Shown here: positions 3,046 to 42,090 of the stretch, in pieces
Position numbering within the stretch: the first letter of the stretch is position 1
Layout: the number at the start of each line of letters is the position of its first letter
Source: Proteromonas lacertae
Taxonomy: Eukaryota
Reading direction: 5' to 3'
Assembly: GCA_002245135.1 (NCBI GenBank)
Contig: NGBS01000052.1
Coordinates: 1-42,090 of the forward strand
Length of the DNA: 42,090 nucleotides
The notes under the pieces: model-generated
Databases searched by the model: none
Seen by the model: only the letters and a program-made list of their open reading frames with translations
What the model was told of the DNA's origin: nothing
Translations under genes and position numbers: made by a program

Positions 3046-3864
3046 TTATTCCGAATCGCTGGGATAACTTGATGAATCAGTGGACTCATCATCGCTGCTA
3101 TAGGAAATGAGGTGATCATATTTATTATTGTGATTATAGCTATTATTACTATTATCTCTAATTCTACTATCAAAATTCACTCTAAATTCATGATTATATA
3201 AATCGATATATAAAAATGAGTGATTACTCTGTTTGGTTGCATAATCATAATATGATTTGAAAACATCGAAATCGATCCATATATCTAAACTTGCATACAA
3301 ATTTCGTAAATTAGCCATACTCAGGTTTTTGAATACCAAACAGTAATCAAGCTGTAAACGAACTGATGGAGTAATATCAGTGATATATTGACTTGATATA
3401 ATTACTTTTGACTTGTAATGACGGTTTGACTTAAGTAATTTAGAAACGGATTTATTTCTTAAATCAAATGATATATCATCGAATATAAATATATTCTCTG
3501 GGTAATCATAATTATCTTTGTCTATATCTTTGATATTATCTAATACTGCATCCAATATATTCACTCTATCTTCATTCACTACTGCATCATAGCAATGGTA
3601 CTCAATTTGGTTATACTTGAGCATATCAGTGATTTTCTCATATATGATATCCTTAGATATAGTTGCAACGAAAAAATACACTACTTGGTCATATCCCTTT
3701 TTCAGCAAGTGTTGTATCATGAAAATAAATATGTTGCAGAAAGGCTCCTGGAAATAGTCATATGCAAGGACACTATCTTTGGAACGTTTTCCACATCCTT
3801 TGACTACTGTCTCAACAGGATTTATGACTATGTTGTTTATTTTTTCTAAATTAACTTTACTCAT
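3046..3864 (-). CDS. A32/FtsK-like virion packaging ATPase, Walker A deleted
   Basis: Walker B IFIFDD, RHYKSKVIISSQY, ITPSVR, FLYID motifs; lacks VARKNSxKTT present in paralogue 25288..25659. Confidence 0.88.
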   Translation of the reverse strand: MSKVNLEKINNIVINPVETVVKGCGKRSKDSVLAYDYFQEPFCNIFIFMIQHLLKKGYDQVVYFFVATISKDIIYEKITDMLKYNQIEYHCYDAVVNEDRVNILDAVLDNIKDIDKDNYDYPENIFIFDDISFDLRNKSVSKLLKSNRHYKSKVIISSQYITDITPSVRLQLDYCLVFKNLSMANLRNLYASLDIWIDFDVFKSYYDYATKQSNHSFLYIDLYNHEFRVNFDSRIRDNSNNSYNHNNKYDHLISYSSDDESTDSSSYPSDSE

Positions 3865-3929
3865 AACAAAAATAACAAAAACATAATTATAAGAAATATA
3901 GCCGTTATCGATATTATTATTATTATTAT

Positions 3930-5419
3930 TTAAACTACACTTACAATACCACTTCCATTAATAGTGACCATACGTCCAGTGATGATATAGAAACGATGAG
4001 ATATATCATTATTAGTAAAGTCATTTGTACCAGGTGTTGAAAATTCAAAGGTTATTTTCAAATCAGTAGCCAAAGGTCTACCTGCCTGGTTCTTAATGTT
4101 GTCCAAATCCTTAGAGCCAAAATTCAATATCTCAAAGAACTTGTCATTGAACTTCTTATCTTTTCTGAATATATCAAACCATGAGTCTTGGAAATATTCA
4201 CGGACAGTCATGAAGCTATCATAATATTGCATAAGTGTATAATCTGGCTGATATACAAAATCATTGATCATCCATCTGAACTGTGCATTTTCAGGTATGT
4301 GGACATATCTTTTTAATGATTCTATCCATGGCCTATAGATAATGTAACGAACAAATGGTCCATTGGAACTATTCAATGTGAATGAATAATTGAATATGCC
4401 AGATCCACCTGATGGTATTTTAATTTGATGACATCTTAAATCATTGAATTGAATAGGTTTTGATAAGCAGTATTGTTTGGTATTATTGTTGCTTAGAGTA
4501 TCCTTGTTGATATAAGCATAAAATTACAATTCTTGAATGTTAACGATTTGAGACTGTCAATACCCTGTTTGAAATTAATAGTATAATAAGTATCTTCTTT
4601 TGATGTATCATCTTTATTTCTTGCAATAGCAGACTTATAAACACTATATAAATTACCAAAATTCTTTTTTGTTTGAAATCTAATACAGATGTACATACTC
4701 TCTCCAAAGAATACATCACTCTTTAATGCAGCAAATGTATTGTAAAATTTACCTAACTGTAATTTAAAATGTAAAGTTTTCTTATTACTATATTGTATTG
4801 CCTGTGCAATTTTAGTACAGACTTTATCTTTTAATTCAATAAAATTCTTACTTGCATCAGCATCATTAGTTTGATCCATTTTCCATTCATTTTTATCTTG
4901 TGCTAAATAACTATGTTCTTTATCATCCCCAGCTAACTGAATTTTATCATAGTAATTGTCTTGATAGAATATATCACATCTCTTTCTAACTAATTCGTCC
5001 ATAAATACACGATATGGTTCATACGAATCATCATGCTTGACCAGATCTGTTCCAGTCTGATTACAAATTCTAAAAGAGGCCAAACCAAACCCTTCTTTAA
5101 TTCCTCCAATTGTACTTGGATATAAATCATCATCTTTATTTATAAGTTTCTTACTTACATCTGCTCTAACAGCACCTGCTTCTGAACCTTTTGCTAATGG
5201 TTCTGTTTCCACATCTATATCGAATTGGATATATGACTTAGCTAAATTGATAATATTATCTCCACTTATCTCCCATCTAATCTCTTCTGCATACGTGTTA
5301 TCACTTAGAGTATATTCTGATGTTAATCCCATCGGAGACAATCTCACATAATTATAGAAGGGTAGCATCACAGGGACATCTACACCATATTTCTGTTCTT
5401 TTGGAATAGATAAAGCCAT
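3930..5419 (-). pseudogene. Putative major capsid protein (double jelly-roll), ~495 aa, one frameshift near 4520
   Basis: ORFs 4493..5470 and 3930..4376 join to match copy 2 (FYAYxNKDT..NNNT..YCLSKPIQFND); EIRWEI..IINLAKSYIQFDI N-terminus, size and position between penton and ATPase. Confidence 0.75.
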
Positions 5420-5450
5420 TAGAAAACAAAAGAATAAAGAAATATAAAAA

Positions 5451-6407
5451 TTAGACTTTAAATACAACAATATCTAAATTAAACTCAATATTATCAAGAT
5501 TAAGCTCATAGCCATTTTGTTGAGTAATCTGAATAGTGATCATACCATTGTTATAGGTATTATTGAATCTCTTTGATGTATTCAATATGTCATTATTCTG
5601 ATATGTAATAAATGGTAACTCTGGATTTGAAACGGGTATATTTTCTAATACATTTGAATCCTGCATAATATTCACTATGTCTAATCTAATGGATATAGAA
5701 TTAACCCATATTAAAGATGGACGAAATGGTAATTGAGTAAATGGGAATGGCTTAACCATAATTTCTTGTTGATTCTCAGGTTCTTGAGATGGAATATATT
5801 CTTTAAAACAACACCAGTAATTGTTTTTGGGTATACCTAATATTTTGTAACTAAGATCTTTGGTGATGATCTCTAATTTTTCTATCCAATATACTGGGTC
5901 TTTTTGATAGTATATTATATTCATATCATTAGCTACCTCAATATGATATGTTTGATTATCATCGAAATTGTCTATACGAAATAAATCTCCTTTTCCTTGT
6001 ATAATAGACACATGTGAACCTTCAGTATTATATGAAGTATCATTTATTCCAAAAACATCATATGTCATATTTTTTACTAAATTATTGATCATACTTAATA
6101 TCTGAGTTTCATCATAGAATCCTTCTGGTATTTTGAGGTGTTTTATAATGTTTGGATACTTTGGTGTATCTACTTGAACATCATGTCTCCATCCCAATGT
6201 GAATACTAATGAAAACTCATCATTTGTTTCTTCCTGTATAGTTGGGAATGAATTGGGTATAACAGCATGTAATAAGCTGACATGAGTATAATCATCGAAT
6301 GATTGCAATTTTAATGTCTTCTTATACTTGTTTCCTCCGCCCATGGAATCAGATAATACAATCATATCAGAATTTAAGTAGTATACACGATGATTCGAAA
6401 CTAACAT
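5451..6407 (-). CDS. Putative minor capsid protein (penton)
   Basis: 318 aa intact; YYLNS, VSLLHAVIPNSFPTI, IPEGFY, ITIQITQQNGYELNL pattern typical of PLV/virophage pentons. Confidence 0.8.
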   Translation of the reverse strand: MLVSNHRVYYLNSDMIVLSDSMGGGNKYKKTLKLQSFDDYTHVSLLHAVIPNSFPTIQEETNDEFSLVFTLGWRHDVQVDTPKYPNIIKHLKIPEGFYDETQILSMINNLVKNMTYDVFGINDTSYNTEGSHVSIIQGKGDLFRIDNFDDNQTYHIEVANDMNIIYYQKDPVYWIEKLEIITKDLSYKILGIPKNNYWCCFKEYIPSQEPENQQEIMVKPFPFTQLPFRPSLIWVNSISIRLDIVNIMQDSNVLENIPVSNPELPFITYQNNDILNTSKRFNNTYNNGMITIQITQQNGYELNLDNIEFNLDIVVFKV

Positions 6408-6492: not shown

Positions 6493-7092
6493 ATGAATAA
6501 CGATCAGGAGCACAAATTTAGAACAGTGCCATATAACTTTTGGAACTCTGATAAACAAATACTTATTAATTGCTTTAGAAAGGATGGCAAAATGAGGGCA
6601 CCAACCAAATCTAAATTATGGAATCTCATATGTGGTGATAAAAAGGAATTAACTTATAGTGAGATCAGATATATACTCAAATACGTCGATGAACAGTATA
6701 GATTAGACTTGGAATATAGATTCAAAAATGGATGTTGGTGGGATGAGAGTAAAGAGAAATTAATTCAAAGATTAGGTATTTCTGATGTAGATGAGACTGT
6801 GCGCATTACACCTAATATGTTCCTTGAGTGTGTTAACAAGATTAAGGAGAAAAGAAACCCATCTTTTGAAAAAACTCATCAATTATTAGAAAGTATTATT
6901 ATGATGAATCATGAAGCTAATATATTACCTCCTCCTCCTCCTCCTAATGATAATAAAGAAATAGAAGAAATACAAGTCAAGCTTGAAAATGACAATGACA
7001 ATGTCAATCTCACAGATTATGACTTATCTCCAATATCACCAAGATCCATTAAGGATGAATATATTAATAATAACCAATGTCTTGTAAGTTAG
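6493..7092 (+). CDS. Conserved viral hypothetical protein; helical N-domain, SP sites, C-terminal CaaX (CLVS)
   Basis: 199 aa; homologue 38976..39599 shares FRKDGK.RAPTKSKL and LTYSEIRYILKY. Confidence 0.85.
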   Translation: MNNDQEHKFRTVPYNFWNSDKQILINCFRKDGKMRAPTKSKLWNLICGDKKELTYSEIRYILKYVDEQYRLDLEYRFKNGCWWDESKEKLIQRLGISDVDETVRITPNMFLECVNKIKEKRNPSFEKTHQLLESIIMMNHEANILPPPPPPNDNKEIEEIQVKLENDNDNVNLTDYDLSPISPRSIKDEYINNNQCLVS

Positions 7093-7160: not shown

Positions 7161-7397
7161 ATGGACTTTGATGTAATAACTGTTTTGCTTTCAGTTCTCG
7201 TATTTGTATTGTATATGATAGCTTTGGCTCTTTTCAAATACTTAAAGGCACACAATTGTATTCCAAACAATACAGACATAGAAGAACTTAGAAATAATAT
7301 AGATGCCATGATGAATAAAGGGTTAGAACATGATAAGACACTTAAGGATATTCAGTCTCTTATTGAAATCACTAAACAAAGGAAAATGACTATATAA
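7161..7397 (+). CDS. Small single-pass membrane protein with coiled-coil-like tail
   Basis: 78 aa, hydrophobic N-terminus then KAHNCIPN; homologue at 38707..38943. Confidence 0.85.
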   Translation: MDFDVITVLLSVLVFVLYMIALALFKYLKAHNCIPNNTDIEELRNNIDAMMNKGLEHDKTLKDIQSLIEITKQRKMTI

Positions 7398-7447: not shown

Positions 7448-7518
7448 TGTATCTTACAACTGGGCCCAGTTGTAGGATACATCACAATTCAAGTTACAAC
7501 TGGCGCCAGTTGTAACTT
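7448..7518. repeat. Two tandem palindromes with core TACAACTGG-SS-CCAGTTGTA
   Basis: 7448..7481 (34 nt, one mismatch) and 7491..7518 (28 nt, perfect), between convergent genes. Confidence 0.9.
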
Positions 7519-7627
7519 ATATTACAATTCAAGTTGTCAAGTGGCCGCCGGATATAGCAGTACCAAACACCAAAAAAAACAAACACACATAACATTACAT
7601 AAAAAACAGAATATATAAAGAATTACT

Positions 7628-7999
7628 TTAATTATCCATATTAGGAACTGGAATACCATACTGATAATGCCTGCCATTATGCACAACTATACGATGTGGA
7701 TCATTCTTTGGCGCGGCTCGTGGCCCGGCTCGTCTTGGTTTACGTTTTGCTCTATCTTTACTTCCTTTTGGTCTTCCTCTTTGTTTAGGTGGATTAGCAG
7801 CTAATAATCGTTCATGCATTTTCATTAATTGTCTATATTGTAATTTAACTTTTGTTTTGTTTTGTAGTGCATTCTTTACTTTGTCTCTATACAAATCATA
7901 GCTCTTTCTCCATTTACTCCTGTTAACTGATTTAGGAATATATGTATTCCAGTCTTTACTAATTTTAAACCCTTTTGGCCATCCTCCATAATAAGACAT
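7628..7999 (-). CDS. Highly basic AT-hook protein, candidate virion core protein
   Basis: MSYYGGW start at 7999; PKQRGRPKGSK AT-hook; Lys/Arg-rich. Confidence 0.65.
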   Translation of the reverse strand: MSYYGGWPKGFKISKDWNTYIPKSVNRSKWRKSYDLYRDKVKNALQNKTKVKLQYRQLMKMHERLLAANPPKQRGRPKGSKDRAKRKPRRAGPRAAPKNDPHRIVVHNGRHYQYGIPVPNMDN

Positions 8000-8103: not shown

Positions 8104-8574
8104 TTAATCAGAGTCACTACTACTACTACTACTAATTCCATCAGCAACATTTCTATCAATTGGATGTATGTGATAAAAATTCCCTCCATTCCATTGATAA
8201 TTCATATGATGAAAAACATATTTTTTAAATTTTTGAGGAATACAATCACCATCTGCATACTCATGTTCTCCATTTCTTAATTTTCTATTCATTACTAATA
8301 TTGAAGCTCTTCTGTCATACCCATAGGTTTTGAGGTTTATCATTAATTGATCGCCATGATGTCTATAATCACCTAGTGCTTCTGGATCATTTCTATTAGT
8401 TCTGAGTGAACCACATATAAACACCTTTACTTTATTTCTTTTTAATATTTTCATTGTTTTAATTGGAAATTGAATAACCCATCTATGTGCTCTATTGTCT
8501 CTATATCTATGAATGTAAAAAGCATATTCACCGTTAGGTTGTCTAAGCATATTATATGTTAAATGGTCAGGCAT
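8104..8574 (-). CDS. Hypothetical basic protein, Ser-rich acidic C-terminus
   Basis: 156 aa ATG-initiated ORF, tandem with 7628..7999. Confidence 0.65.
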   Translation of the reverse strand: MPDHLTYNMLRQPNGEYAFYIHRYRDNRAHRWVIQFPIKTMKILKRNKVKVFICGSLRTNRNDPEALGDYRHHGDQLMINLKTYGYDRRASILVMNRKLRNGEHEYADGDCIPQKFKKYVFHHMNYQWNGGNFYHIHPIDRNVADGISSSSSSDSD

Positions 8575-8979: not shown

Positions 8980-9662
8980 ATGAGTGGCATTATCCTCAAG
9001 AAAGAGGTGATATATCAAGTGAAAGTAAAGAACTACCATGAAGATCGTGAATTCGATGTTGTAATATTTAATTTATCTGATATCGTGAAAAGACAAAGAG
9101 AACTAAGCAGATATAAGTATACTCCTAATTTATATTATTCATAGGTGGAGACATAATATATATTTTCCGAATTTATACTGCATGTTACAATCATTCAAGA
9201 ATATATGGATCAAAGACAGCAGAGATAGATTAGAGAGTTATAGGAACTTCAAGAATTATTTTATATATTGCTTTAATTATAATCCTAATAATATCAAAAC
9301 AATTGTATGAATTAATTATAAATATTAATATATATATATAGGTTGATCGTAAACTTGATTACTTATATGTATCTTTGAAAGTATTAGCTGAAGAAGAAAT
9401 AACTGAATTCGGTGAAGGTGATAAATCAGCTGATTATCCAAAAGAATATGATGATATATATAATAATGTTTGTGGAATATTATATTCAGATGATTATAAT
9501 AGCGTTAGTTCAAGTGAGAGTGAAGATGATAAGGAAATTGGAATCGATATTAATGAGCAAGTAAAAAAACAAGAGAATAAACAAGATAATAATGTAGATC
9601 AAGAAGTTATCACAAAGAAACAAGAAGAAGAAGAATTTATCACAATTACTGAATCCGATTAA
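8980..9662 (+). CDS. Spliced hypothetical protein, 205 aa (exons 8980-9116, 9145-9304, 9342-9662), acidic C-terminal half
   Basis: Removing GT-AG introns of 28 and 37 nt gives one open frame joining ORF 9375..9662. Confidence 0.7.
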
Positions 9663-10250
9663 GAAACAGATTCTGATATGGAAGTTGAAGAAACAAAAAA
9701 AGACACTTTGGTTAATTAGAATATTAAAGTGAAAGTGAAAGTGAAGAAGATGATATGGAAGTAGAATGGCAATCAGAATATTAAATCATAATGAATCTTG
9801 AATTGGTTTTGCTTTGTTTTGTTTGGGTTAGTATTATAACTTATAAATTATATGGTGTGCTAATTAACACATTAAAATAATAATAAAAGAAATTAAGCTA
9901 TTTTTGAAAAAAGCATTCGTTTCGAGATTTGACTTGAACTCTATATTTTGTTTTATTTGATATAGGATGGTCACCATATGTTGTCATATCACACAGTATG
10001 GTGGCCATGTCGCGCGCGATAAAGTAAGTAATTGTTTATATTTAGGTCTAATATAATATTATTGTTAATGTCATTATGCTATACATGAATATTTACTTCA
10101 TATCCATCTTACTTATTTCTATCATTTAACTTTTTTTTTATTGCATATATCACTAATTATTGTATATTTTTTTATGTCATAATTACATTTGTCATGTAAA
10201 TTACATTTTGACACAAAATATTCATTTTTAAAAATCTTTTAAATGAGCTT

Positions 10251-10672
10251 TGTTGTGCGCCATTTGTCATAGTTGGCCATTTTTCTACCAGACACTTTTA
10301 AAACAAACTAAATATATTTTCTTACTTGTCTTGATGAAAATTTGTTGCTTTTATACTTACTTTGTTATATGACCTACCTCTGCAGTAAACTTTTTGTTAA
10401 TATAAATAGTTGTTCTAATCATTTTTGTTAATGTATTTTAGTCTATATTAGCTAAATATGCATTTAGTTTACTTCAAAAATTTCTAGAAAACAAACGGAG
10501 CAAATATTCAAACTATTTATATTAACAAAAAAGTATACTGCAGAGGTAGGTCATATAACAAAGTAAGTATAAAAGTAACAATTTTTCATCAAGACAAGCA
10601 AGAATATACATTTAGTTTGTTTTAAAAGTGTCTGGCAGACAAATGGCCAACTATGACAAACGGTGCACAACA
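10251..10672. mobile_element. MITE with ~160 bp TIRs (TGTTGTGCGCC...) and 7 bp TSD TGAGCTT
   Basis: Long inverted arms 10251..~10411 and ~10511..10672; TGAGCTT on both flanks. Confidence 0.9.
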
Positions 10673-11364
10673 TGAGCTTCTAATACAATCAGCAGCTCAA
10701 TGAATATATTTTCATGAATATATTTTCAGAACGAAACATAAGTATCTCATATACAAAGTATCAGCTTTATAATCCTTCAGCATCCTCAATGGCACATGTG
10801 TAATTATTTAATATTGAAATTAGAAAATTTTGTAAATGATCTTCAAAAATTAGTATTGTATATAATTTTTTTATCTCTATACATAGATCTGAAGTTAATT
10901 ATTAAAATTTAGTAGTTAAATTTACAATGAGTTATTTATTTGTAGAGATAACCAAATTTTTAAGGAATTTAGTTTTATTTTTTCATTTATCTCATGAACT
11001 ATGATGATTTATTTTTAGATATTTTATATTAACAATACATATGTTGACCTAATAGTTGATATCGGCGCAAGTTATATATATCATAGACCTAACTATATAT
11101 TTGTAAATAACTCTTTATAACTAAGATAAAAATGATATTAGTTAGGTCAACAGATATTATATGATGAAAGCAGCTCAAAGGCGCACAACAGATATTATAG
11201 CTTTTCTTTGATTGTAATCAATTGTACATAGTAAATATCAATACAAATGTTTGAGGTTTGTTACAAAACAAGGGTGATTAAATATTAAGCAATGCTTTAT
11301 AAACCATAACAAGGGGACACACCTCCTAGAACGCTCGTTAGAACTATCATTTATATAGATTATT

Positions 11365-11991
11365 ATGTACATTTTTATATACGATATTCTTTTGTTAATC
11401 ATTATATACATATTTTTTAAAATAAAAAGAAATAATAATCATTATTTATTAATTTACATTAGTTCATGCAATAGATTCTTTTATCTAAACATAACAATTC
11501 CTTCAATTGTAAACCATATGTTAAATTATGAATCAATTCAATATCATATCATTATATTTGATCAAGGAACTAAGGAGTTACGTGATTATAATCATCATTT
11601 CTATCATACATATGACTTGTTCTTTATGAATCCGAATGGATATATATATACATACAATATAATATTTTCTTATTTATATAGCACATATGCTTTACTTATT
11701 GATGATGATAGGCCTATTAAACAAAAGATAGAATTAACTCTTACTAACACAAATTTCTTTGAAATATGCATGGAAATAATGGATATAAGAAAAGATATTT
11801 TTGGGTTTATATTAAAGCAAGAGGGAAATGGAAAGGCAAATTGTTTTAATTACACAAGAAGAAAAGCATTAAAATACTGTAAAGTCGAAAAAGCTTTCAT
11901 GGGATATTATTACAGTAATGGTGCTTCAATTTACAAAACTAAGAGTCTAAAAATGGTTAAACAATACAATGGCGAAATAACATATGTTTAA
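11365..11991 (+). CDS. Putative GT-A fold glycosyltransferase-like type II membrane protein, possibly 3'-truncated
   Basis: N-terminal TM, IIIFDQGT, YALLIDDD (DxD), YSNGASIY. Confidence 0.55.
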   Translation: MYIFIYDILLLIIIYIFFKIKRNNNHYLLIYISSCNRFFYLNITIPSIVNHMLNYESIQYHIIIFDQGTKELRDYNHHFYHTYDLFFMNPNGYIYTYNIIFSYLYSTYALLIDDDRPIKQKIELTLTNTNFFEICMEIMDIRKDIFGFILKQEGNGKANCFNYTRRKALKYCKVEKAFMGYYYSNGASIYKTKSLKMVKQYNGEITYV

Positions 11992-12740: not shown

Positions 12741-13203
12741 TATTAATAGATGGTGTGACAAGAATTATATAAAAGAATATTGACAGATTTATTCAAAGAA
12801 AGTCTATATTGGATTGAAGATAAATCAAATGATAAAGATAAATCGTCTATATATACCTTCTCATATTGCAACTCCTTGAATTTACCTATCCTCTAGTAAC
12901 ATGTCTATTGATTATCGAGATGAAGCTCTAGTAAGTCAGCTCTTCAGAAATCTTTGACATTGAGCCATAGTCCTATGAGAATCATGACGATTACCTACGG
13001 GATGATCTTTTATAGGATTATCTCCTACAGGGACTCTTGAAAGCTATCTACAAGTGTTGGTCATCTCAAGACAATGAATCTAATCACGATCTAGAGTCTC
13101 CTTGCTACGCTAGTGACCTTGTAAGGGCTTTTAATAGAATCGCGGAACCAGGACTTTACAATTGTTAAAATCTCCATTGAGTCTTTTCTGATCCGTGAAT
13201 ACC

Positions 13204-13479
13204 ATGAAGAGAACCAGACCTATCAATGCCTTAGAGGAATTTTCTAGCGATGAGGAAGACACTAAGGTGTTCAGAATTAAGCTTAAGTCGGAGTATAAGA
13301 AGTTGAAGGCTAAGATGGCTGCTGCTGTTGATGATGATGTTCCTCCTCCTTTCCCTCCTAAACCTCATAAATCTTCACTTACAATCACTAACTCCAAGGA
13401 TGAAGACGATGATGATGATCCTTTCAATGCTGAGATCATGGACATGGTAAGAGACTTCATAGCTGACAATACCCGATAA
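13204..13479 (+). CDS. Hypothetical acidic/Pro-rich protein in a higher-GC island
   Basis: MKRTRP start; C/G-ending codons (AAG, ATC, TTC, GAC) unlike the flanks. Confidence 0.55.
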   Translation: MKRTRPINALEEFSSDEEDTKVFRIKLKSEYKKLKAKMAAAVDDDVPPPFPPKPHKSSLTITNSKDEDDDDDPFNAEIMDMVRDFIADNTR

Positions 13480-13515
13480 AGCTAGTGTCTGTGATAACTT
13501 ACCTTGATTATAAAC

Positions 13516-13929
13516 ATGTCGGAGGAGATCACCTTGAATGAAGACGCTAAGTACGTGATCCTTAACCAGAAGGATGACAACCAGGATCTTTCCGATGAGT
13601 TCATCAAGATGTACCTCATCTCCATGAAGCAACAGATAAGGAATCTCGGAGTGATGAGCAGGTATACCGATCCTACTCCTGATGATGACTGTGTATACTT
13701 TAAGAACCTTTCTGCCAAGTTCCATTGTCACCTTATGAAGCTCAATCTGCTTCCTACGACTTTACTTAAAGGTCCAAGACATATCATGACCAGGATGAAG
13801 AAAGGCTGTAAGCTTATCAGATACAACAATAGCAAGGAAGAAGACTATGGATACATCCCACTGGGCCATTACATGCCACTTATCCTCTACTCTGGTGCAT
13901 TAAGAACCTTGAAGTATCTCCTTGGCTAA
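13516..13929 (+). CDS. Hypothetical protein in higher-GC island; frame stays open past the TAA to ~14030
   Basis: Same codon bias continues beyond 13929 (DIEQLSACKKMKQYMDFLQP). Confidence 0.55.
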   Translation: MSEEITLNEDAKYVILNQKDDNQDLSDEFIKMYLISMKQQIRNLGVMSRYTDPTPDDDCVYFKNLSAKFHCHLMKLNLLPTTLLKGPRHIMTRMKKGCKLIRYNNSKEEDYGYIPLGHYMPLILYSGALRTLKYLLG

Positions 13930-14033
13930 GACATCGAGCAGCTTTCTGCTTGTAAGAAGATGAAGCAGTACATGGACTTCCTCCAGCCAACATTGAAGGT
14001 TAAGATTTTGTCTGTAGAAAATAGTCACATTAT

Positions 14034-26059: not shown

Positions 26060-26185
26060 TGTTGTGCGCCGTTTGTCAGAGTTGGCCGTTTGCCTACCAG
26101 ACACTTTCAAAACAAACTAAATACATATTCTTACTTGTCTTGATGAAAAATTGTTACTTTTATTTTAACATTTTGTATATGATAG
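26060..26185 (+). mobile_element. Solo TIR of the 10251 MITE family
   Basis: ~100 nt close match to 10251..10355. Confidence 0.85.
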
Positions 26186-26700: not shown

Positions 26701-26758
26701 TGTCTCCTAGACAAACGGCGTATTTCTAAATCTTCTCACGCCGTTTGTCTAGGAGACA
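26701..26758. repeat. Hairpin with 21 bp perfect arms (TGTCTCCTAGACAAACGGCGT)
   Basis: Arms 26701..~26721 and ~26738..26758; shares CGCCGTTTGTC with the MITE TIR. Confidence 0.85.
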
Positions 26759-26923
26759 CTTTTGATTTCTCATATTTCATATATGAGATAATCATAATAT
26801 ATTATTAACAAATATAACAAAATTGAAATCAGAAAATAAGTTGAAACAACATTCAACTCAAATCTTTTTCCAAAATTGGTTTTTATGGTATGTGGATGTG
26901 TTTACCTAACAAACACATTGTAA

Positions 26924-31181: not shown

Positions 31182-33531
31182 ATGTTAAGTAAACCACCAC
31201 CACCACCACCTGTACCTCCAAAATTATATGTGTATATCTCAAATATTGCATTGTGAGTTAGAAATGCAAGAAAAACTGGTTCATTAAACATATCTTGTCT
31301 TGGATTATCTATAATACCTGATGATGTTTTCCATATTTATGATAATGTATAATGCATATTTTTAATATACTTTTAATAGTTATCAGAAGTAAGTAAATTG
31401 ATATTATTAATAGGGAGAGAATTGGTGGGAAATAGTCGATTTACATAAATTAGATATGTGGTATATATACAAATTATTGTTTTATTTTACTATATTTCAT
31501 AGTCGAAACGAATTAACAGTAATTCCAGATCAAATTTCAGCATTATCTGCATTAGTGTTATTAAATATATCATTCAATCAAATATCAGCAATTAGTGAAC
31601 AATTGTATTGTTTGACAGACTTAAAATCACTTGATTTATCTCAGTATATATCTATTGAAAAAATATTATTAACATTATCATCAATAGTAACAAAATTACA
31701 ACTGTTTCAGATTGTATTGGTGAGTTGAAAAACCTTGATTTACTAAATCTATCCTATAACTCAATAGTAAATACAATAACTCCTTCAATATGTCTATTAA
31801 GTGATTTAGAAGTATTAGATTTAAGTTATAATCAATTAAAAGTCCTTCCAAATGAAATATGTTTATTAACCAAATTGACCAAAGTGATTTTGTCTAACAA
31901 TTTATTACAATCTTTACCATATTCATTTAGCGAATTAACATTACTAGAAACAATAGAATTATGTCATAACAAACTTCAATCTTTACCATCTTTTTCAAAA
32001 ATGAAGAATTTAATCATAATTAATTTAAAAGAAAATCAATTGAATGAATTATCAGAATTTCCATCATCAAACAATCTACAGATGTTATACTTAGATTTTA
32101 ATAATTTAAAACAGCTTAATACAGATATGTTAAAGAATATACCAAATTTACATACATTAAGTGTAAAAGATAATAAATTATCCGTTTTACCACCTAATAT
32201 AACATCTCTCCAAGAATTGAATCAATTAGACATAAGTAACAATGACATAACTGATTTACCAAATGAGTTAGGTTTAATGTATAATTTACAGAAGATAATT
32301 GTCGATGGAAATCCTATTAAAAGAATCAGACAAAACTTATTATTAGGAAGTTGTGAGAATTTGAAAAAATATTTAAAGTCAAGATTACCTACTGAAGTAT
32401 TAGAAAAAGAGATAGATAAAGTTGAACCTGATGAAATTGTATATAGAAATGCTGTTCAGAATGGAATAATTGATTATCAAAATCAGAAATTGAAGATTGT
32501 TCCTGATGTATTTCGTGAGAAACAAGTTATATTAACATCAACAGAAATATTATTAAACAACAATTTGATAAATGAAATACCTGATTATTTTCAGTATTAT
32601 AGTAATGTAAAGAAAGTGATGTTACAATATAATAATATTCAGTATTTTCCAGTAGTTTTATTAACTTTGCCAAGATTAGAAATTATAGATTTAAGTTATA
32701 ATCAGTTAAGTAATTATACTACAGTAAATTTGAATGTAATATATCCTGCATATGAGAATTTAACATCAATCAATTTAACTAGAAATTTTTTATTAGATTT
32801 TCCGTTGTTCTTATATCAATGTAAAAAATTAACAACTGTACAATTAGGGTTTAATAAAATACAGTACATAGAACCGCATGGATTTATATCATTATGCAAT
32901 ATTCATTATTTATATTTGAATGATAATCATATTAAAGAAATACCAAAATCAATTATTTGTTTTGATAAATTACATACTATAAATGTTGAGAATAATGATA
33001 TATACAACTTTCCTTATGAAATATGCTTTTGTGATGGTATACAGAATATACAGTTAAGTGGAAATCCACAAAAGATTGTATAATTTATTATTATATTGTT
33101 TTGTTATTGAATAGATTCGTTATGAATATTTATCAAAGCCATGTGAGTTTATAAAGAAGTATATTAAAGATAGATTAAGTCAAGAAAAGGTAAATGAGTT
33201 ATATGGTTTAAAGAATAAATATCAGGAAATAAAAACAAATCTTGGATTAGGCGATATTCAAAAACCACAACATTTACAACAACAAAGACAAATAACCAAC
33301 AATTTGAAATATGAACTACCTGAAAGAGACAATAGTGAAGTAATAAATAAAATAAAAGGAATTGAAGAGAAAATGAATTCTTTACAAAATGAAATTGAAA
33401 CTCCTGGATTATCATCAGCTAAAATGTATTGTTATTTTAATTAAATTATTAATAGATTTGCACTTAAGAAGGATCTTGCTTTGTTAAGAGCAAATAAGAT
33501 AAAATTAGAAAGATCTATCTCAAAGATTTAA
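31182..33531 (+). CDS. LRRC40: Multi-exon leucine-rich repeat protein, LRRC40-like
   Basis: NARKTGSLNIS and NWWEIVDLHKLD in 5' exons, two LRR blocks with GNPIKRIR..LKKYLKSR; exact exon borders not all resolved. Confidence 0.75.
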
Positions 33532-34075: not shown

Positions 34076-37000
34076 CAGTCAAAAACCTTTAACTTGAATT
34101 TTTATAACTTGAACCATTTTTCTTTCAAAGTTTTTGCATTTTGTGTTAAGTTGGGGTATTTAATTTTAAAACTTTTCTTTGTTACATAACATTCTCTACA
34201 AGTATTATTATTTTATAGCTCATTTAAAATAAATGAGTAAATGTTTAATATATTATGAAGTATATAGCTTCTATTTTATTTCTATAGGTATGCAGAATAA
34301 TAAAAATGGTTATTTGATAGAGATTAGAAATTATAAGAAATATTTGGGAGTAGTTTGGGAATTAAATTATTTATTATAGTAGATTGAGACTTAGTATTTG
34401 TGTTGATGGTAATTGGAGTGAATATAGTAAATGTTTTTTTGACTTTCGATAATGTTCTAAGAATAAGTGAAATCAACCTCAGAAACTGATAATAAATGAA
34501 GTAAATGGAGTAAATGCAATGAATATTCAGCTTAATAAGAAAAGAATAATCTATAATTACACATTACCTTCAGAAAATACCAAATAATGTGATGTCTATA
34601 CAGTTGAATGAAATGTAAGCTGTAAAACCACTGTTCTGGTTGATGAAAAATGATATATGCTAGTATAATCACAACATTACTATTAGTTATGATGTAAAAC
34701 ATAATTGTTGGAAATAATGCACATAAGTTATTCAGAAATAGTGTATGAGATAAGACAATACATTTAATAATGTAAATTGGTTGATATATATCTTTCAATT
34801 GAATGATTAGAAGTAAATATGGAGTAATAGGTTTTTAATTAAAAAGAATCTAATTTGAAATGAATAATGTTATTGATGTATATAGAGATGAAGAAGTTAG
34901 AAAATCGAAAATAAATAGTGAAACAGTAATTTAAATCCGTAATTTTTTTTATATTGTTGTTATAATTGTTATGCTGATTTGATGTAATAAACAATAAAGT
35001 GCTAATTTAATAAATGGTACATACAAGCTTGATGATCAATTTCTGCGTAGATATTCTCAACATCTATTGACGATGTTGACACAAAATATGAATTTTATTT
35101 CACTAAATAAGACTAGACTACATATATTCCTTTTCTTTTCTCTTGGCTCGGCTTGATTTTTTTGAACAAAGCGCCTTTTATGTCTTGTCAAAACTCAACT
35201 ATTACTAGAAAATGCAATAATAGAACATTAGCAGAGAAAGCAGAGGCTGTATATGAGCTTGATAACAAGAAAACAACAAGAGCTAAGGTGAGGGCAAAAT
35301 TGAATGTTGTTAACTCTACGATTACTAACTGGCTTTATAATAGAGATACAATAATGAAGTATTTTGACTGTGATAAATACATGGCTACTATTAAAAGAGA
35401 AAAAAAAACACAAAACCCTGAATTGGAAAAAGGTTTGAAGATATGGTTTGATGAAGCTTATAAAAAACTACCTTTGACACATATTCCTGTCACGAAAAGT
35501 TTATTATTAAGTGAAGCTAGGATACTAAACAAGAATAATGTAGGTAAAGCTATAGTAAGTCAAAGCTATATAGATGGATTCATGAAAAGAAATGGTTTAT
35601 CTTGTATCGTATTACATGGAGAAGCTTCCTCTGTAGGTACTGTGAATCTAAAGCCAATACAAGATGTAATGAGTCAATATGAGCCTAAATATATCTTCAA
35701 TATGGATGAAACCTCACTATTTTACCAGCAATTACCTCAAAAATGTGTTGTAAAAAATGTAGAAAAATCAGATTTTCGAGGTTTTAAGATGTCTAAACAA
35801 CGAATATCTATAGCAGTCACAGTCAACATGGATAACAGTGTATATATTCCATTATTGTTCATTGGAAAGGCCAAAAAACCAAACTGTTTCAGTGATGTTC
35901 CGAAATGTTATACCAGTCAACATCATGCTTGGATGGATTCGACTGTTTTCATTTATTGGATTGATGAAATATTTATGCCAGCAGTAACGTCAACATTAGG
36001 AGATAGTAAAATATTATTAATAATGGATAACTTCAGTGGACATCCGAAAGAATTATCAAAAGAAAAGTATAAAAATTTGGAAATCATATATTTACCCCCA
36101 AATACAACTGCTAAATTACAGCCTCTAGATCAAGGTATCATTAGTGCTTTGAAGGGCAATTACAAGACATCAATCCTCAATGAATGTGTGAAAACTATTG
36201 ACAATTTCGAAGAAATTAGACGAATAAAAGTAAAAAATGGAATGGGTGGATTGAAATTTGGTAAAACTCCTAATATTGCAGATTCGATTGTTTATATGAC
36301 AACTGTATTTAATGAAATGAAATCTTCAACAGTAATCAATTGCTGGAAACAGTCAACAATACCTACTGTAACTCAAATGGCGAAGCTCGAAAGAGTTCTA
36401 GAATTATTACCACCAGAAGAAGACCATAGTGTAAAATTAAGGTTAGCATTGGCTGATATTATTGAAAAAATAAAGGTTTTAAATCCTATAAACAGTAAAA
36501 GTACATTCATTACAGGTACTTCATTATATTCTGCAACTAGAATTGAAGATCTTTGTCCATTTATGCATTTTGAAGAGTCTCCAGCCTTTCAAGTTTCAGT
36601 CATTAATGACACTTCGATGAATATCACTGAAAATATTATAGATAGTGACAAAAAAGAAGAATTAATGACAACAAAATTCAAAAGAAAACTTAATAAACTA
36701 TACAGATCATGTTGCAATATGAATGACGTTAAGAAACAAAGGATATCAAAATGTTTTGACGAATTAAAAACCAATTTATAGATTAATACTATAATTTTTA
36801 CATCATATTTTATTTGTTAATTGTTTTTTGGAGGGTTTAACTATAAAATATCAATCAATAAAATAAGTAGAAGGTGTTGATATGGTTATTTTATTATGTA
36901 GATGCCTAGATGTGGTTATAAAGACAAGAATTCTAAGTATAAAAAAATTTGATCGTTTCATTTTTTATAAAACTGTAATACTTAATATAACTAGATTATA

Positions 37001-37360
37001 ATATTCATTAGTTTAAACTTAATTCATAACAAATATTAGGAAATTTCCACTCTTTTCTCAAATTAAATAGTATTCAACAATTAAAATGCTCTAGTCACTA
37101 CATACAATTCATGAAGCAGTATATAAAGATTTTAATATATAATACCTTATAATATATCAAACAATAACAAAATAAGATAGTAATGTAAATATATAGCGAA
37201 AATAAAAAGACTATAGATATATAGATGTTTTATAACAACGTCTTATCTATTTCAAAACCCCAACAAACACCTCTAATATATAAAACCATAACTTGAATAT
37301 GGGGGTATTTTTGGTTATTTTTTCGCTATTCAAGCTGTTCAAGTTAAAGGTTTTTGACTG
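34076..37360 (+). mobile_element. pogo/Tigger-like transposon, 23 bp perfect TIRs, TA TSD
   Basis: TA|CAGTCAAAAACCTTTAACTTGAA ... TTCAAGTTAAAGGTTTTTGACTG|TA. Confidence 0.95.
35180..36781 (+). CDS. pogo/CENP-B-type DDE_1 transposase (DD33D)
   Basis: Psq and CENP-B HTH-like N-terminus; FNMDET, LIMDN, LPPNTTAKLQPLDQG; uninterrupted. Confidence 0.93.
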   Translation: MSCQNSTITRKCNNRTLAEKAEAVYELDNKKTTRAKVRAKLNVVNSTITNWLYNRDTIMKYFDCDKYMATIKREKKTQNPELEKGLKIWFDEAYKKLPLTHIPVTKSLLLSEARILNKNNVGKAIVSQSYIDGFMKRNGLSCIVLHGEASSVGTVNLKPIQDVMSQYEPKYIFNMDETSLFYQQLPQKCVVKNVEKSDFRGFKMSKQRISIAVTVNMDNSVYIPLLFIGKAKKPNCFSDVPKCYTSQHHAWMDSTVFIYWIDEIFMPAVTSTLGDSKILLIMDNFSGHPKELSKEKYKNLEIIYLPPNTTAKLQPLDQGIISALKGNYKTSILNECVKTIDNFEEIRRIKVKNGMGGLKFGKTPNIADSIVYMTTVFNEMKSSTVINCWKQSTIPTVTQMAKLERVLELLPPEEDHSVKLRLALADIIEKIKVLNPINSKSTFITGTSLYSATRIEDLCPFMHFEESPAFQVSVINDTSMNITENIIDSDKKEELMTTKFKRKLNKLYRSCCNMNDVKKQRISKCFDELKTNL

Positions 37361-37632: not shown

Positions 37633-37917
37633 TTAATGAGTTGAATTAATTAATCTACTGACTGGTCCTTCTTCTTCAGGTAAATCTTGTTCATCAATTG
37701 TTCGCATTTTTGTAACCGTTCTTGTTTTGTAACGTTTTGTGCGAACGTTGGTTGTCATGACAGCGTAACTTCTCTTCTTTGGCACATCATCATCTTCATT
37801 CGTTAAATCGATGATGAAATGCGCTATTGAAAATTAAATTGAATGTGTATTTATACAAGGTTCATTGTTTTCAGTAGTTAAATCGACTGGTTCTTTAGGA
37901 TTAATGGGTGAAGACAT
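37633..37917 (-). CDS. Spliced 83 aa microprotein with two SIM-like motifs and NLS-like PKKR (exons 37917-37857, 37823-37633)
   Basis: 33 nt GTATAAATA..AG intron; MSSPINPKEPVDLTTENNEPSHFIIDLTNEDDDVPKKR.. Confidence 0.7.
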
Positions 37918-38034
37918 TTTTTCAATAATTTTAAGATTAATTGTAATTTTCAAAATAGATTTGAATGAATAGTATAGAATTCCTATATAAAATTTAAATT
38001 CTATTTTAAACTAATCATTATAACTAAAAAATAG

Positions 38035-38135: not shown

Positions 38136-38587
38136 AAAAATTCAAAAATTTAAATTTTTAAATTTGCTTAAAATGCCGTTTCATCATTTTCAAAAATGAC
38201 GAAACACAATAATTCTGAAACGGTTCTTCAATTTCATTTCGGACAAGCCAAATAATTATTTTCAAAATGAATTTGCAAGCCAATTTCTTATTTTTCAAAT
38301 TAAATTGAAGTTTGATGCACAAACCGACTGTTCAAGTCAAGCATTTGTCAAAATAGATTTGAATATTTGAAAATTCAAATTTTTGAATTTTCTAAGAAAT
38401 TTCTTCATATTCTATTTTTGACGCAACGATTGAGAATTATTCTTCAATCGACATTGTACAAAATGAATCGTCACATGTACTTTATTTTAGGCAATTATTT
38501 AGTCTAACGGTTTAACCGTTGCTATTTAAATGATGAAAACGCGTTCGAATCTCAATAATAACTTTCATTTTTTTAAAAGAAAAATAA

Positions 38588-38671
38588 TCGTTTTACTTTC
38601 CCTGAAAAAATAGTCGTTTTACTTTCCCTGAAAAAATAGTCGTTTTACTTTCCCTAAAAAAATAGCCGTTT
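38588..38671. repeat. 26 bp tandem repeat x3.2 (TCGTTTTACTTTCCCTGAAAAAATAG)
   Basis: Units start at 38588, 38614, 38640, partial at 38666. Confidence 0.93.
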
Positions 38672-38706
38672 ATTATATAATAAAAAATTAATTCGTTACA
38701 AATTAT

Positions 38707-38943
38707 TTAAACTGTGTGCTTTCTTTTATTCACAATATCTATATATGTCTTTATATCTTCCAATGTCTTGTCATGCTGCAAGCCTTTCTCCATCATATCG
38801 ATCATATTTGAACGAATGTCTGCGATATCTACCTCATTTGGAATACAATTGTGTGCTTTGAAGTATTTGTACAGTGCCAAAGCGAGCATATAGAGTATAA
38901 ATACTAATACAGAGAGTAAAATTGTCATTATATCGTTCCCCAT
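38707..38943 (-). CDS. Small single-pass membrane protein (homologue of 7161..7397)
   Basis: MGNDIMTILLSVLVFILYM..KAHNCIPN..KGLQHDKTL. Confidence 0.85.
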   Translation of the reverse strand: MGNDIMTILLSVLVFILYMLALALYKYFKAHNCIPNEVDIADIRSNMIDMMEKGLQHDKTLEDIKTYIDIVNKRKHTV

Positions 38944-38975
38944 AAGAAAAAATTTTAAATCAATTAACAAAAAAA

Positions 38976-39599
38976 TTAAAATATAATACAATTAGGCCTT
39001 ATAATGCTTTTATCTGTTATTGATTTTGGACTTAAACTAGGAACTGAGTTAACAGGAGACAAGTCTTCTAAACCACTTAAACTGTTTACATTCGATTTTG
39101 TGACCGGTTTTATGTAATTTACCTCTTCTTTTACCTTAATTTCGTCATCTTTTATGTCAATTATCTCTTGTGGAGGTAAAAAGTCCTCTTCTTCCTTCTT
39201 ATGTAATGCTAAAATCTGTTCTAACATCATTCTTGTCTTCTTTTGACCTGCAATTCTGTGTTCTTTGTGTTTACTTAAGGCTTGAGCGAAGCTTGAAGCG
39301 GTTAGTTTTGGCGCGTTAAGAGGTACTTTTACTTGTTCAATGATTGGTCCATTAAAACAACCTGTCTTAAACTTTGATTCTATGTAATATTTGTACTCAT
39401 CTTCGATGTATTTCAATATATATCTTATCTCTGAGTATGTAAGTCTTGATTTTGATCCTGAAATTAAATGATATAATTTCGATTTTGTGGGAGCTCTGAT
39501 TTTACCGTCTTTTCTGAAGCTTCTGATGATTACTTGTTTGTCTAATTCTGTTAATTTGAATGGAACTGTTCTATGTTTAGGTTTTTTATTATCTTCCAT
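38976..39599 (-). CDS. Conserved viral hypothetical protein with CaaX (CIIF), homologue of 6493..7092
   Basis: 207 aa intact; shared N-terminal domain. Confidence 0.85.
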   Translation of the reverse strand: MEDNKKPKHRTVPFKLTELDKQVIIRSFRKDGKIRAPTKSKLYHLISGSKSRLTYSEIRYILKYIEDEYKYYIESKFKTGCFNGPIIEQVKVPLNAPKLTASSFAQALSKHKEHRIAGQKKTRMMLEQILALHKKEEEDFLPPQEIIDIKDDEIKVKEEVNYIKPVTKSNVNSLSGLEDLSPVNSVPSLSPKSITDKSIIRPNCIIF

Positions 39600-39660
39600 A
39601 AAATAAAAATAGTGTCAATATTACTAATATTACCAATATTGACATTATTATTTTTTCAAA

Positions 39661-40626
39661 ATGTTAGTCTCTAATCACCGTGTATACTATTTAAATTCTG
39701 ATATGGTAATGACTACAGGGACATTCGGAGTAGGGAATAGATACAAAAAGACCTTAGCCTTACCATCATTTGATCAAGATTATACTCATGTGTCGTTATT
39801 ACACGCAGTTGTCCCTAATTCTTTCCCTACTATACAAGCAGAGACAAACGATACGTTTCAGTTCTTATTTACATGTGATTATGATAAAGAAGATGGCGCA
39901 GCGCCAGAAAAACCCACAGTATGTGTACCAGTACAAATTCCTGAAGGTTTTTATGATGAGAATCAGATTCTTAAGTTAATCAATGATGGAATACGTTCAA
40001 TAAAATATATAGATTTCGAAATTCCTGATGATGATTTGTTTATAGTTAAGGATATACTATATACACCTGTAATAGAAGGTAATGGTGATTTATTTAAGCT
40101 AGATGATAAAGATGATGAACATACTAGACATTTAAAAATTGCAAGTAAAATGAATGCATTATATAGTTTAACAAAACCTATTTTTTGGATTTCAAAAATA
40201 GAAATAGTAACAAAAGATTTAGCCTACAAGATATTAGGTATTCCAAATAATAACTATTGGTTATGTTATGATAAATTTGTTCCAGGACCTCAAGGAACAG
40301 AAAAAGCTATAGCTGCATTTTCAGTAGATTTCCCATTTACTCAATTACCATATCGTCCATCTCTTATATGGGTTAGTGCGATATCCATTCGTTTAGATAT
40401 TGTAAACATCATTCAAGATTCAAATGTGTTAGAAAATATACCAATAGCAAACCCTGAGTTACCATTCATTACATACCAGAACAATGACATTCTTAATACT
40501 AGCAAAATGTTCAATAATACTTATACCAATGGTCAAATTACTATTCAGATTACTCAACAAAATGGTTATGAACTCAATCTTGATAATATCGAGTTTAATT
40601 TAGATATTGTTGTCTTTAAAGTCTAA
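39661..40626 (+). CDS. Putative minor capsid protein (penton), copy 2
   Basis: 321 aa intact; termini nearly identical to 5451..6407. Confidence 0.8.
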   Translation: MLVSNHRVYYLNSDMVMTTGTFGVGNRYKKTLALPSFDQDYTHVSLLHAVVPNSFPTIQAETNDTFQFLFTCDYDKEDGAAPEKPTVCVPVQIPEGFYDENQILKLINDGIRSIKYIDFEIPDDDLFIVKDILYTPVIEGNGDLFKLDDKDDEHTRHLKIASKMNALYSLTKPIFWISKIEIVTKDLAYKILGIPNNNYWLCYDKFVPGPQGTEKAIAAFSVDFPFTQLPYRPSLIWVSAISIRLDIVNIIQDSNVLENIPIANPELPFITYQNNDILNTSKMFNNTYTNGQITIQITQQNGYELNLDNIEFNLDIVVFKV

Positions 40627-40656
40627 TTTTTATTTTATTTTTATTTTGTGTTTCTG

Positions 40657-42090
40657 ATGTCTCTAACTATCCCAAAAGAGCAAAAACACGGTGTAGACGT
40701 TCCAGCAATGATGGCCTTTTACCAGTATGTCAAGTTGACACCAATGGAAACTAAATCATTCTATCAACTTAAAGATAACACTTATTCAGATGAAATAAGG
40801 TTCGAATTAAGTGGTGAGAACATTATAAACCTTGCAAAGTCTTACATTCAATATGATATCGAAATTGAAACTCATTCACTTGCTGCAGCAAATGCATTAA
40901 AAAAATTGATCTTAGTGGTAATGTAGCAGCTAGTGGTGAGTTATATCCAAAATATATAAAAGGAATGAAAGAAGGATTTGGATTAGCAGCATTTCGTTTA
41001 TGTAATAATACAGGAACAGATCTAGTTAAGCTTGATGACAATTATGAACACTATAGAGTGTTTATGGATGAATTAGTGAGAAAAAGATCTGACGATTTTT
41101 ATCAATCAAATTATTATGATGGAATTCAATTAAAATGGAATGATGAATACCATGATCATTTAATTCTTGATGAAAATGAATGGGAAATGGATAAAGAAGA
41201 AGCTACATTTGTTACAGCTACTGGAACAACAGATAAATATCAACAGTATAAGAAGTCTAAAACTATTCATGTAAAGATGTTTTTAGGTAAATTTTACAAT
41301 ACATTTTTATCAATGAAAAGTGATGTATTCTTTGGAGAGAGAATGTATTTATGTTTCAATTTCCAACAAAGTCCTAAATTTGGACAAATTATGGGTTTTA
41401 ATAATGATGCTGGTGTTGAAACAACAATAAACTGGCCTGCAGATGGAATAAGACCAGATTCAATTAAATTCAAGAATTTTTATTTCTATGCTTATTTGAA
41501 TAAGGATACTCAATGTAATAACAATACAAGAAGTTATTGTTTATCTAAACCAATCCAGTTCAATGATGTAAAGTGTCATACATTAACAGTAAATCAAGGT
41601 GGATCTGGACAATTTAACTATTCCTTTACATTGAACAGTTCAAATGGACCATTCTTACGTTACATTATCTATAGACCGTGGATCGAAGGAACTCAAACAG
41701 CACACGATGGTAAGAGTGGAACAGCAGAAAATAGATATGCCAGTAATTCCTGAAAATGCACAATTCAGATGGATGATTAACGATTTTGTGTATCAACCAG
41801 ACTATTCATTAATGCAGTATTATGATAGTTACATGACTGTACAAGATTATTTCAAAGATTCATGGTTTGATATATTCAAAAGACATATTCCTTTTGAAAA
41901 GAAGTTCTTTGAAATTTTGAATTTTGGATCTAAAAGACTTGATAATATCAAGAATCAATCAGGAAGACCATTAGCTAGTGACTTAAAGATCACTTTTGAG
42001 TTGTCTACTCCTGGTACAAATGATTTCACTAACTTTAATATCACTCATCGTTTCTATAGTTACAGGAAGAATGTGTACAATCAATGGAAG
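40657..42090 (+). pseudogene. Putative major capsid protein, copy 2; frameshifts near 40900, 41740 and 42058; truncated by window
   Basis: ORFs 40648..40926, 40965..41753 and downstream IPENAQFRWMINDFVYQPDY align with copy 1. Confidence 0.75.

Follow-up and report, generated by a model that had tools for sequence, protein, structure and literature searches.

Probable remnants of three separate Polinton-like viruses in a 42-kb stretch of DNA likely from Proteromonas lacertae or a close relative

Within a 42,090-nucleotide stretch of eukaryotic DNA (contig NGBS01000052.1, positions 1 to 42,090; hereafter the window), we found the gene module of Polinton-like viruses (PLVs), i.e. a major capsid protein with a double jelly roll (judged by the model of a homologue), a penton protein and an A32-like packaging ATPase, spread over three incomplete copies. 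Most probably, what is left here are the broken remains of three separate, mutually related small DNA viruses, which likely belong to the PLV group counted in the flagellate Proteromonas lacertae and likely reside in the genome of this species or a close relative. The span 3046-42090, which an initial annotation had marked as a hotspot of three viruses, is mostly non-viral and holds transposons, hydin fragments, an aspartase gene and a leucine-rich repeat (LRR) gene.

Copy 1 lies on the minus strand, its penton, capsid and ATPase genes following one another at 6407-5451, 5419-3930 and 3864-3046, the order given by the initial annotation. Its features, including open reading frames (ORFs) of the orphan kind (ORFans), are:

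2374-2931 (-): ORFan of 185 aa 3' of the ATPase gene, likely viral, with another open frame running on to ~2190; no Pfam match
3046-3864 (-): A32-type packaging ATPase, 83% identical to homologue P0069
3930-5419 (-): major capsid protein with a predicted double jelly roll; one frameshift near 4.52 kb
5451-6407 (-): probable penton (minor capsid protein) of 318 aa, open, directly upstream of the capsid gene
6493-7092 (+): ORF-A of 199 aa, shared with copy 2
7161-7397 (+): ORF-B of 78 aa with a hydrophobic N-terminus, shared with copy 2; likely a membrane protein
7454-7535 (no strand): two 40-bp tandem copies with a palindrome in each
7628-7999 (-): basic ORFan of 123 aa with an RGRP motif; no Pfam match
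8104-8574 (-): ORFan of ~156 aa, likely the final gene of this remnant; no Pfam match

An in-frame deletion of 13 residues has taken away the ATPase's Walker A, a motif kept in 13 of 13 close homologues; because of this deletion the enzyme is predicted to be dead. ORF-A gave only helix-turn-helix leads (best Atlas score 0.78, under the lead threshold), and the basic ORFan, whose RGRP motif is presumably AT-hook-like, is a candidate virion core protein. Both flanks of the copy are host-like, with hydin pieces up to ~1.8 kb on one side and an intron-like gene from ~9 kb on the other.

Copy 2 is the mirror image of copy 1 and runs from 38707 to the window end; its previously noted inverted penton-capsid order stands:

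38580-38697 (no strand): 26-bp tandem repeats in the left part of the copy
38707-38943 (-): ORF-B, homologue of copy 1 ORF-B
38976-39599 (-): ORF-A, homologue of copy 1 ORF-A
39661-40626 (+): probable penton of 321 aa, open
40657-42090 (+): major capsid protein in four reading-frame pieces, cut off by the window end

The two divergently transcribed ORFans that had been noticed in copies 1 and 2 are indeed common to both, ORF-A at 38% (E 9e-42) and ORF-B at 62% (E 5e-37), and an alignment of the two copies spans 2823 nt at 68%. Of the three, copy 2 may have suffered the least damage. At its likely left end (~37640-37920, minus strand) lies a short acidic frame, interrupted by a single stop, whose two VDLT/IDLT stretches we take to resemble SUMO-interacting motifs.

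Copy 3 had been described as a capsid gene followed by an ATPase gene. The 3' end of the capsid gene, followed by the ATPase, is present; overlooked was that the ATPase is split into two halves, 8.5 kb apart and both matching the same homologue, P0081:

25732-25956 (-): capsid gene, last 74 codons only; profile E 5.8e-19
25288-25659 (-): 5' half of the ATPase, 75% to residues 1-129 of P0081; Walker A altered
16787-25287 (no strand): 8.5-kb DNA transposon inside the ATPase, with 12-bp terminal inverted repeats (TIRs) starting CACG and a TA target duplication
16200-16786 (-): 3' half of the ATPase (Walker B and Arg-finger region), 79% to residues 124-253 of P0081; Pox_A32 E 0.046
15592-16068 (+): cysteine-rich ORFan of 158 aa, convergent with the ATPase and possibly part of copy 3; no Pfam match

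The remainder of the capsid gene is missing, and a fragment of a miniature inverted-repeat transposable element (MITE; 26060-26182) sits at the cut. A fourth element, considered on account of the ATPase at 16.2-16.8 kb, was rejected, this stretch being the other half of copy 3. The ORFs of the 8.5-kb transposon itself gave no Pfam match; by its features we take it to be CACTA/CMC-like. Nested within it are a hAT element (~19500-22230, with Pfam matches and an open transposase frame of 556 aa) and a second short element (~23385-24375) with the ends CAGGGTTG. The GC-richer stretch 15200-15345, with an inverted AGTAGCTAC pair at 15205 and 15232, might represent one terminus of copy 3; a partner to it at another end was not found.

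The capsid call of the initial annotation had been based on size, position and weak motifs, and comparison of structures now supports it. Among 711 candidates, five capsid homologues were found, all from Logan, 43-60% identical, 469-484 aa long and unbroken. A capsid profile matched 23 proteins among 1.84 billion representatives; by our own reading, 20 of these appear to be family members or fragments thereof and three are distant (P0061, P0062 and P0064; E 1e-5 to 1e-4). Neither capsid nor penton had a Pfam match, their homologue searches returned no named protein, and PDB sequence searches with the ATPase or capsid profile found no match. The fold was approached through an AlphaFold model of homologue P0002, whose identity to the capsids of copies 1 and 2 is 62-66%. 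All 13 top chains of 48,161 were double-jelly-roll capsid or scaffold proteins, led by that of Paramecium bursaria chlorella virus 1 (PBCV-1; Z 9.2, root-mean-square deviation 6.3, 319 aligned) and followed by the orf virus scaffold, African swine fever virus p72, faustovirus, mavirus, Sputnik and others. Foldseek against viral models gave 74 matches at E<=0.001, the best at 4e-10. A double jelly roll is thus predicted for the window capsids.

The penton call is supported as well, less strongly than that of the capsid. Nine penton homologues were found among 529 candidates, again all from Logan, and the model (predicted local distance difference test, pLDDT, 66.5) matched a capsid-protein chain of Emiliania huxleyi virus 201 (EhV-201; Z 6.0), the mavirus penton (4.7) and PBCV-1 (4.6), with adenovirus-derived chains and Sputnik lower. 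In the Atlas, the protein came out at 0.98 (219 of 256 features) next to a cluster that bears the name of the Sputnik minor capsid V18/19 domain, with PF21507 present in 26% of its members. In addition, the penton family profile matched what lies upstream of the capsid gene in environmental PLVs (98.9%, E 1.5e-17), and the environmental penton profile had a single weak match in PDB, PBCV-1 P1v1 (E 0.019). Because of the Atlas match, the gene position and the environmental profile match, we accept that the gene probably encodes a minor capsid protein. For the ATPase, 136 homologues were found among 575 candidates, many of them carrying PF04665, which confirms the assignment to the A32 family.

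How the three copies are related to each other is best seen from their codons. Copies 1 and 2 share 59% identity in the capsid, and differences at codon positions 1/2/3 number 79/59/149 in the penton and 14/9/48 in the C-terminal part of the capsid. The ratio of non-synonymous to synonymous divergence (dN/dS) is 0.21 for the penton, 0.05 for the capsid C-part and 0.37 for the capsid middle, at a dS of ~1-2.6 and with dS saturated for ORF-A and ORF-B. Read in this way, the pattern is one of divergence under purifying selection and, because dN/dS is 0.05-0.37, shows copies 1 and 2 to be separate viruses. That one old insertion was duplicated and inverted within the host genome might be supposed from the inverted arrangement with the same five-gene order and from a recent hydin duplication (95%) in the window. 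However, the differences concentrate at third positions and each copy has its closer relatives outside the window, so that duplication after insertion was rejected; the codon pattern refutes it unless the genes were under selection as host genes, and we consider it extremely improbable.

Phylogenetic analysis points the same way for copy 3. The ATPase tree, a quick search on 116 rows from which homologues <240 aa had been excluded, joined copies 1 and 3 and 13 Logan proteins in one branch (SH-aLRT, a Shimodaira-Hasegawa-like approximate likelihood ratio test, 99), copy 1 neighbouring P0069 and copy 3 neighbouring P0081. In the capsid tree (21 rows), in which long branches meet, the family makes up one side of a 100/100 branch, and the copy 3 fragment groups with P0046, P0050 and P0067, apart from copies 1 and 2. 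Given the codon pattern and the placement of copy 3 in another subclade in both trees, the earlier suggestion of distinct viruses and repeated integration is upheld, and the three copies are distinct viruses that likely integrated separately.

The same annotation had considered a possibly undescribed, virophage-type family, and neither part of this was borne out. In the survey of Bellas et al. 2023 (PMC10120064), P. lacertae has 285 capsid matches, 5.45 per Mb, all in one 'new' unnamed cluster, which by our own count is found at about column 24 of the table, apart from the virophage columns. Its 450-aa representative in Table S3 was matched to PBCV-1 with ColabFold and Foldseek (E 4.9e-9; PMC10120064). 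The motifs WMINDF, NYSFT and LNFGS are common to copies 1, 2 and this capsid, and each occurs once in the available part of the table text, only in the P. lacertae row; a further window motif, INLAKSY, was not found in that text (PMC10120064). In two blocks aligned by eye, copy 1 and the P. lacertae capsid were identical at 13 of 20 and 15 of 25 positions, against a cluster criterion of 25% identity over 30% of the length (PMC10120064). It is thus strongly indicated, as far as such motifs and blocks tell, that the window capsids belong to this cluster, which is reported and fold-confirmed, though unnamed and unplaced. The cluster lies outside the virophage clusters of the table, and so, going by the by-eye match, would the window capsids. 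The two also agree in capsid length (450 aa vs 469-514 aa here), in motifs shared along the whole protein, in a double-jelly-roll fold by the same kind of test and in an AT-rich host of 27% GC content. In contrast, the representative is by eye closest to the copy 3 subclade (P0046, P0067), with copies 1 and 2 farther away, and the survey parts available describe no penton, ATPase or ORFans for the cluster (PMC10120064).

An undescribed virus family repeatedly targeting this locus would fit the lack of Pfam matches for capsid and penton, the fact that all close homologues are unnamed Logan proteins, the family's own long-stemmed branch in both trees, and a cluster that has no group name and, like P. 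lacertae itself, is absent from the main text of Bellas 2023 (PMC10120064). Nevertheless, the cluster had already been detected and five P. lacertae loci are labelled in Dataset S1 (PMC10120064), and a 2026 preprint, in the part available, treats Proteromonas PLV capsids as known (10.64898/2026.07.28.741278). Our literature search, which covered papers outside subscription, found none describing these elements themselves, and the available passages of two preprints do not mention Proteromonas (10.1101/2022.05.25.493380, 10.1101/2024.03.23.586382).

As to targeting, the locus had been called a hotspot. At 285 matches in 52.2 Mb, 42 kb are expected to hold 0.23, and at least three would be found with P 0.0017, i.e. 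in 2.1 of 1,241 windows. The survey applied a filter of 100 aa (PMC10120064), below which the 74-aa piece of copy 3 falls; for two capsid matches in 42 kb, P is ~0.02 (calculated by hand). If the host has the density seen in P. lacertae, this is a modest excess only, with about two such windows per genome by chance. The same stretch also holds the pogo, hAT and 8.5-kb transposons, MITEs and duplicated hydin pieces. Because transposons pile up here, tolerance of insertions rather than targeting is suggested as the explanation of the cluster, and an undescribed, locus-targeting family appears rather unlikely.

Comparison with named systems gives a similar picture. Maverick-Polintons (Polintoviricetes), which have long TIRs, a short target duplication and, beside their polymerase and integrase, a cysteine protease, resemble the window elements in the capsid, penton and A32 ATPase module and in their endogenous state; they differ in that no family B polymerase of the protein-primed type (pPolB), rve integrase, protease, TIR or target duplication was found here and that the window capsid has no Pfam or PDB sequence match. 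Virophages (Virophaviricetes: Sputnik, mavirus), which depend on a giant virus and have a maturation protease, share the module, a capsid fold at Z 7.7-7.8 and a penton-like match, but these Z values tie with those of non-virophage capsids, and no protease was found in the window. The Blastocystis MELD virus comes from a related gut stramenopile and likewise has virion proteins unrecognisable by primary sequence, whereas it carries an adintovirus-like PolB and integrase (PMC8502044, in the part available). The Gossevirus GKS1 capsid was rejected, its printed type sequence of 576 aa being unlike the window capsids by eye.

Pattern scans of viral and metagenome contigs yielded no close relatives, and only distant ones were reached via ATPase alignments. 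These environmental loci (n=84: four from one scan and the best 80 of 108 from another) have an ATPase homologous to that of the window, which in the C48-like protease/rve group named below reaches 28-38% over the full length. Among the 25 that are at least 8 kb long, 22 matched the capsid profile, which for this purpose included the distant P0061, P0062 and P0064, and eight the penton profile; window capsid pieces also matched environmental loci directly, with E down to 1e-7. The order penton, capsid, ATPase on one strand was seen in 11 of the 12 loci with both capsid and penton matches, and the module, initially described as unusual, is therefore shared with these PLVs. They differ from the window elements in that their capsid and ATPase genes lie several hundred bases apart, in the absence of any of the window's ORFans and in carrying protease, replication and integration genes, which were not found in the window. 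Of the 113 large ORFs listed, 61, belonging to 11 loci, were scanned together with 30 ORFs from L001-L003, which recovered an rve integrase in L020, L024 and L037, pPolB in L024, a D5-like primase-helicase in L001, L002, L035, L037 and L048, a C48-like protease in eight loci and a phospholipase in L071; the C48-like protease/rve group comprises L001, L002, L007, L020, L024, L037, L069 and L078. Long reference contigs with the same capsid module are L024 (1-16151), L037 (1-17866) and L020 (1-14801). Such a gene set is reminiscent of Polintoviricetes-related groups from protists in Bellas and Sommaruga 2026, above all of VC35, to which the environmental PLVs possibly belong; VC35 has no known host and carries protease and phospholipase in about half of its members (10.64898/2026.06.19.733378, in the part available). 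The motifs of the distant environmental capsids corresponded to no named PLV group in Tables S2 and S3 of Bellas 2023 (PMC10120064, as far as available).

PLVs in the broad sense (Polisuviricotina module) have genomes of 15-40 kb, often bounded by TIRs, with a replication gene (pPolB, primase-helicase or PolA-helicase) and an integrase (rve or tyrosine recombinase). No replication gene, integrase or protease was detected by Pfam in 42 long and 138 short frames of the window, and tblastn of the window with 1,831 ORFs of the relatives found only capsid, penton and ATPase plus two marginal matches, in agreement with the initial annotation, which had recognised no pPolB, integrase or protease. Tests for TIRs and shared ends were negative for all three copies (30 base shuffles unbeaten in 8 of 8 comparisons), copy 2 leaving the window. 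The elements in the window are partial and their ends were probably lost. As an integration gene, a TIR and a target duplication were all missing from the copies, we can only infer that the viruses integrated by themselves.

Could these instead be naturally compact, capsid-only units of ~7 kb, with copy 1 near-complete, that borrow replication and integration from a helper? Copy 1, with about nine ORFs between host-like flanks, and the left arm of copy 2 both have no replication or integration gene, and there are PLVs in which replication genes are not detectable (VC40, 15-20 kb; 10.64898/2026.06.19.733378, in the part available). Yet the ends of copy 1 are not joined by a TIR or direct repeat (score 34 vs a shuffled maximum of 38), this copy is already deleted for Walker A, the environmental relatives have polymerase or helicase plus integrase genes, and divergent enzymes may sit unrecognised among the ORFans. 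Such units are thus distinctly improbable.

Several points weigh against the reading of three PLV remnants. The P0002 model is of low confidence (pLDDT 51, predicted TM-score 0.45) and represents a homologue, not a window protein. The penton fold matches are weak (Z 3.9-6.0) and concern the middle domain only, they include flagellin (Z 5.1), Foldseek of the penton model gave no match at E<=0.001, and in the Atlas the recognition value (1996) fell short of the mark of 2300. The P. lacertae capsid was matched by eye and with motifs picked after seeing the sequence, which overstates overall identity, and none of the copies shows a TIR, target duplication, integrase, protease or replication gene. 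Finally, frameshifts in such elements are often assembly errors (Bellas 2023, PMC10120064).

The last point bears on whether an intact, inducible provirus is present in copy 2, and in part in copy 1, with frameshifts that arose in assembly. Both pentons and both pairs of ORF-A and ORF-B are open, unbroken full-length family capsids occur in Logan contigs, and breaks can vanish on polishing (Bellas 2023, PMC10120064), so that the capsid frameshifts could in part be such errors. On the other hand, copy 2 is cut off by the window end, and frames of 473-556 aa in its neighbourhood (aspartase, LRR, pogo and hAT) are unbroken. The loss of 13 residues around Walker A, the 8.5-kb insertion with its target duplication and the capsid truncation are not single-base errors. 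We regard an intact provirus as unlikely.

Taken as broken remnants, the three copies suggest the following history. From the known functions of the module, trimers of the capsid protein and pentamers of the penton would assemble into the icosahedral particle of the parent viruses, which the ATPase would fill with the genome. To judge by the nearest environmental relatives, this genome would be 15-25 kb long, copied by pPolB or a primase-helicase and inserted by an rve-type integrase, the genes for which are not in the window. Insertion was likely independent for the different subtypes and hit a stretch poor in genes, where transposons and hydin pseudogene pieces were collecting as well. Decay after insertion would then account for the lesions seen in the sequence, i.e. 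the Walker A loss in copy 1 and the transposon insertion and truncation in copy 3.

The surroundings are likely those of P. lacertae or a close relative, as judged by the GC content of the window (27.2%), its hydin pieces and its short introns; P. lacertae is a reptile-gut flagellate with 27.0% GC (PMC12129017, in the part available). A search for sequencing runs with the host genes listed none, a result that carries no weight either way. By Pfam, the window encodes an aspartase-type lyase, an LRR protein, hydin-like Ig-domain fragments and pogo/Tc5 and hAT transposases. The features outside the viral copies are:

~8980-9780 (+): acidic ORF, likely the host gene bounding copy 1, with a 37-nt GT-AG intron-like stretch at 9305-9341
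29571-30992 (-): aspartase-type lyase gene, open frame; Lyase_1 E 1e-87
31300-33530 (+): LRR gene with short introns, among them a 37-nt GT-AG intron at 33078-33114 that keeps the frame
34076-37360 (+): pogo/Tc5-type transposon with 23-bp TIRs and a TA duplication, adjoining the likely left end of copy 2

Aspartase-type genes in anaerobic protists are often of bacterial origin, and the LRR gene presumably resembles LRRC40. The hydin-like fragments 2-758 and 28314-29093 (with 900-1830 and 26900-28300) are 95% identical to each other; because their reading-frame breaks are common to both, they look like a decayed piece that was duplicated after breakage, the second copy ending at 29093. A 114-bp imperfect palindrome (26673-26786) lies between copy 3 and the hydin fragment. 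A 1-kb island at 13000-14030 has 41.5% GC vs 24-25% around it and contains the ORFans 13204-13476 and 13519-13926 (GC at third codon positions 0.42 and 0.57; no Pfam match); it is possibly a piece of another mobile element. MITEs of one family, with the ends TGTTGTGCGCC, are located at 10251-10672, 14034-14563, 26060-26182 and 11180-11190. An ORF at 11518-11988 (+) had no Pfam match; its DDD motif, we assume, recalls glycosyltransferase family 2.

In itself, the locus is ordinary: it likely represents a further example of a counted group rather than a new family, adding three decayed copies to a cluster for which 285 had been counted in the genome of a single protist. Its value is in the lineage, which is unnamed and unplaced in the available parts of both the Bellas 2023 survey and the 2026 framework, and for which the penton, the ATPase clade and the link to aquatic PLVs with protease and rve integrase are new here. 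It is tempting to speculate, at a low probability, that this is a family-level lineage of DNA viruses of gut protists that shrank to a ~7-kb capsid-only unit (penton, capsid, ATPase, a membrane protein and a basic core protein), dependent on a helper for replication and integration, and forms the endogenous, host-assigned branch of a hostless, protease-bearing, VC35-like aquatic group; it would then still be circulating, to judge by intact capsid genes in many sequencing runs. Should the aquatic relatives be VC35, an endogenous relative from an anaerobic stramenopile of the gut would be added to a virus group that has no known host.

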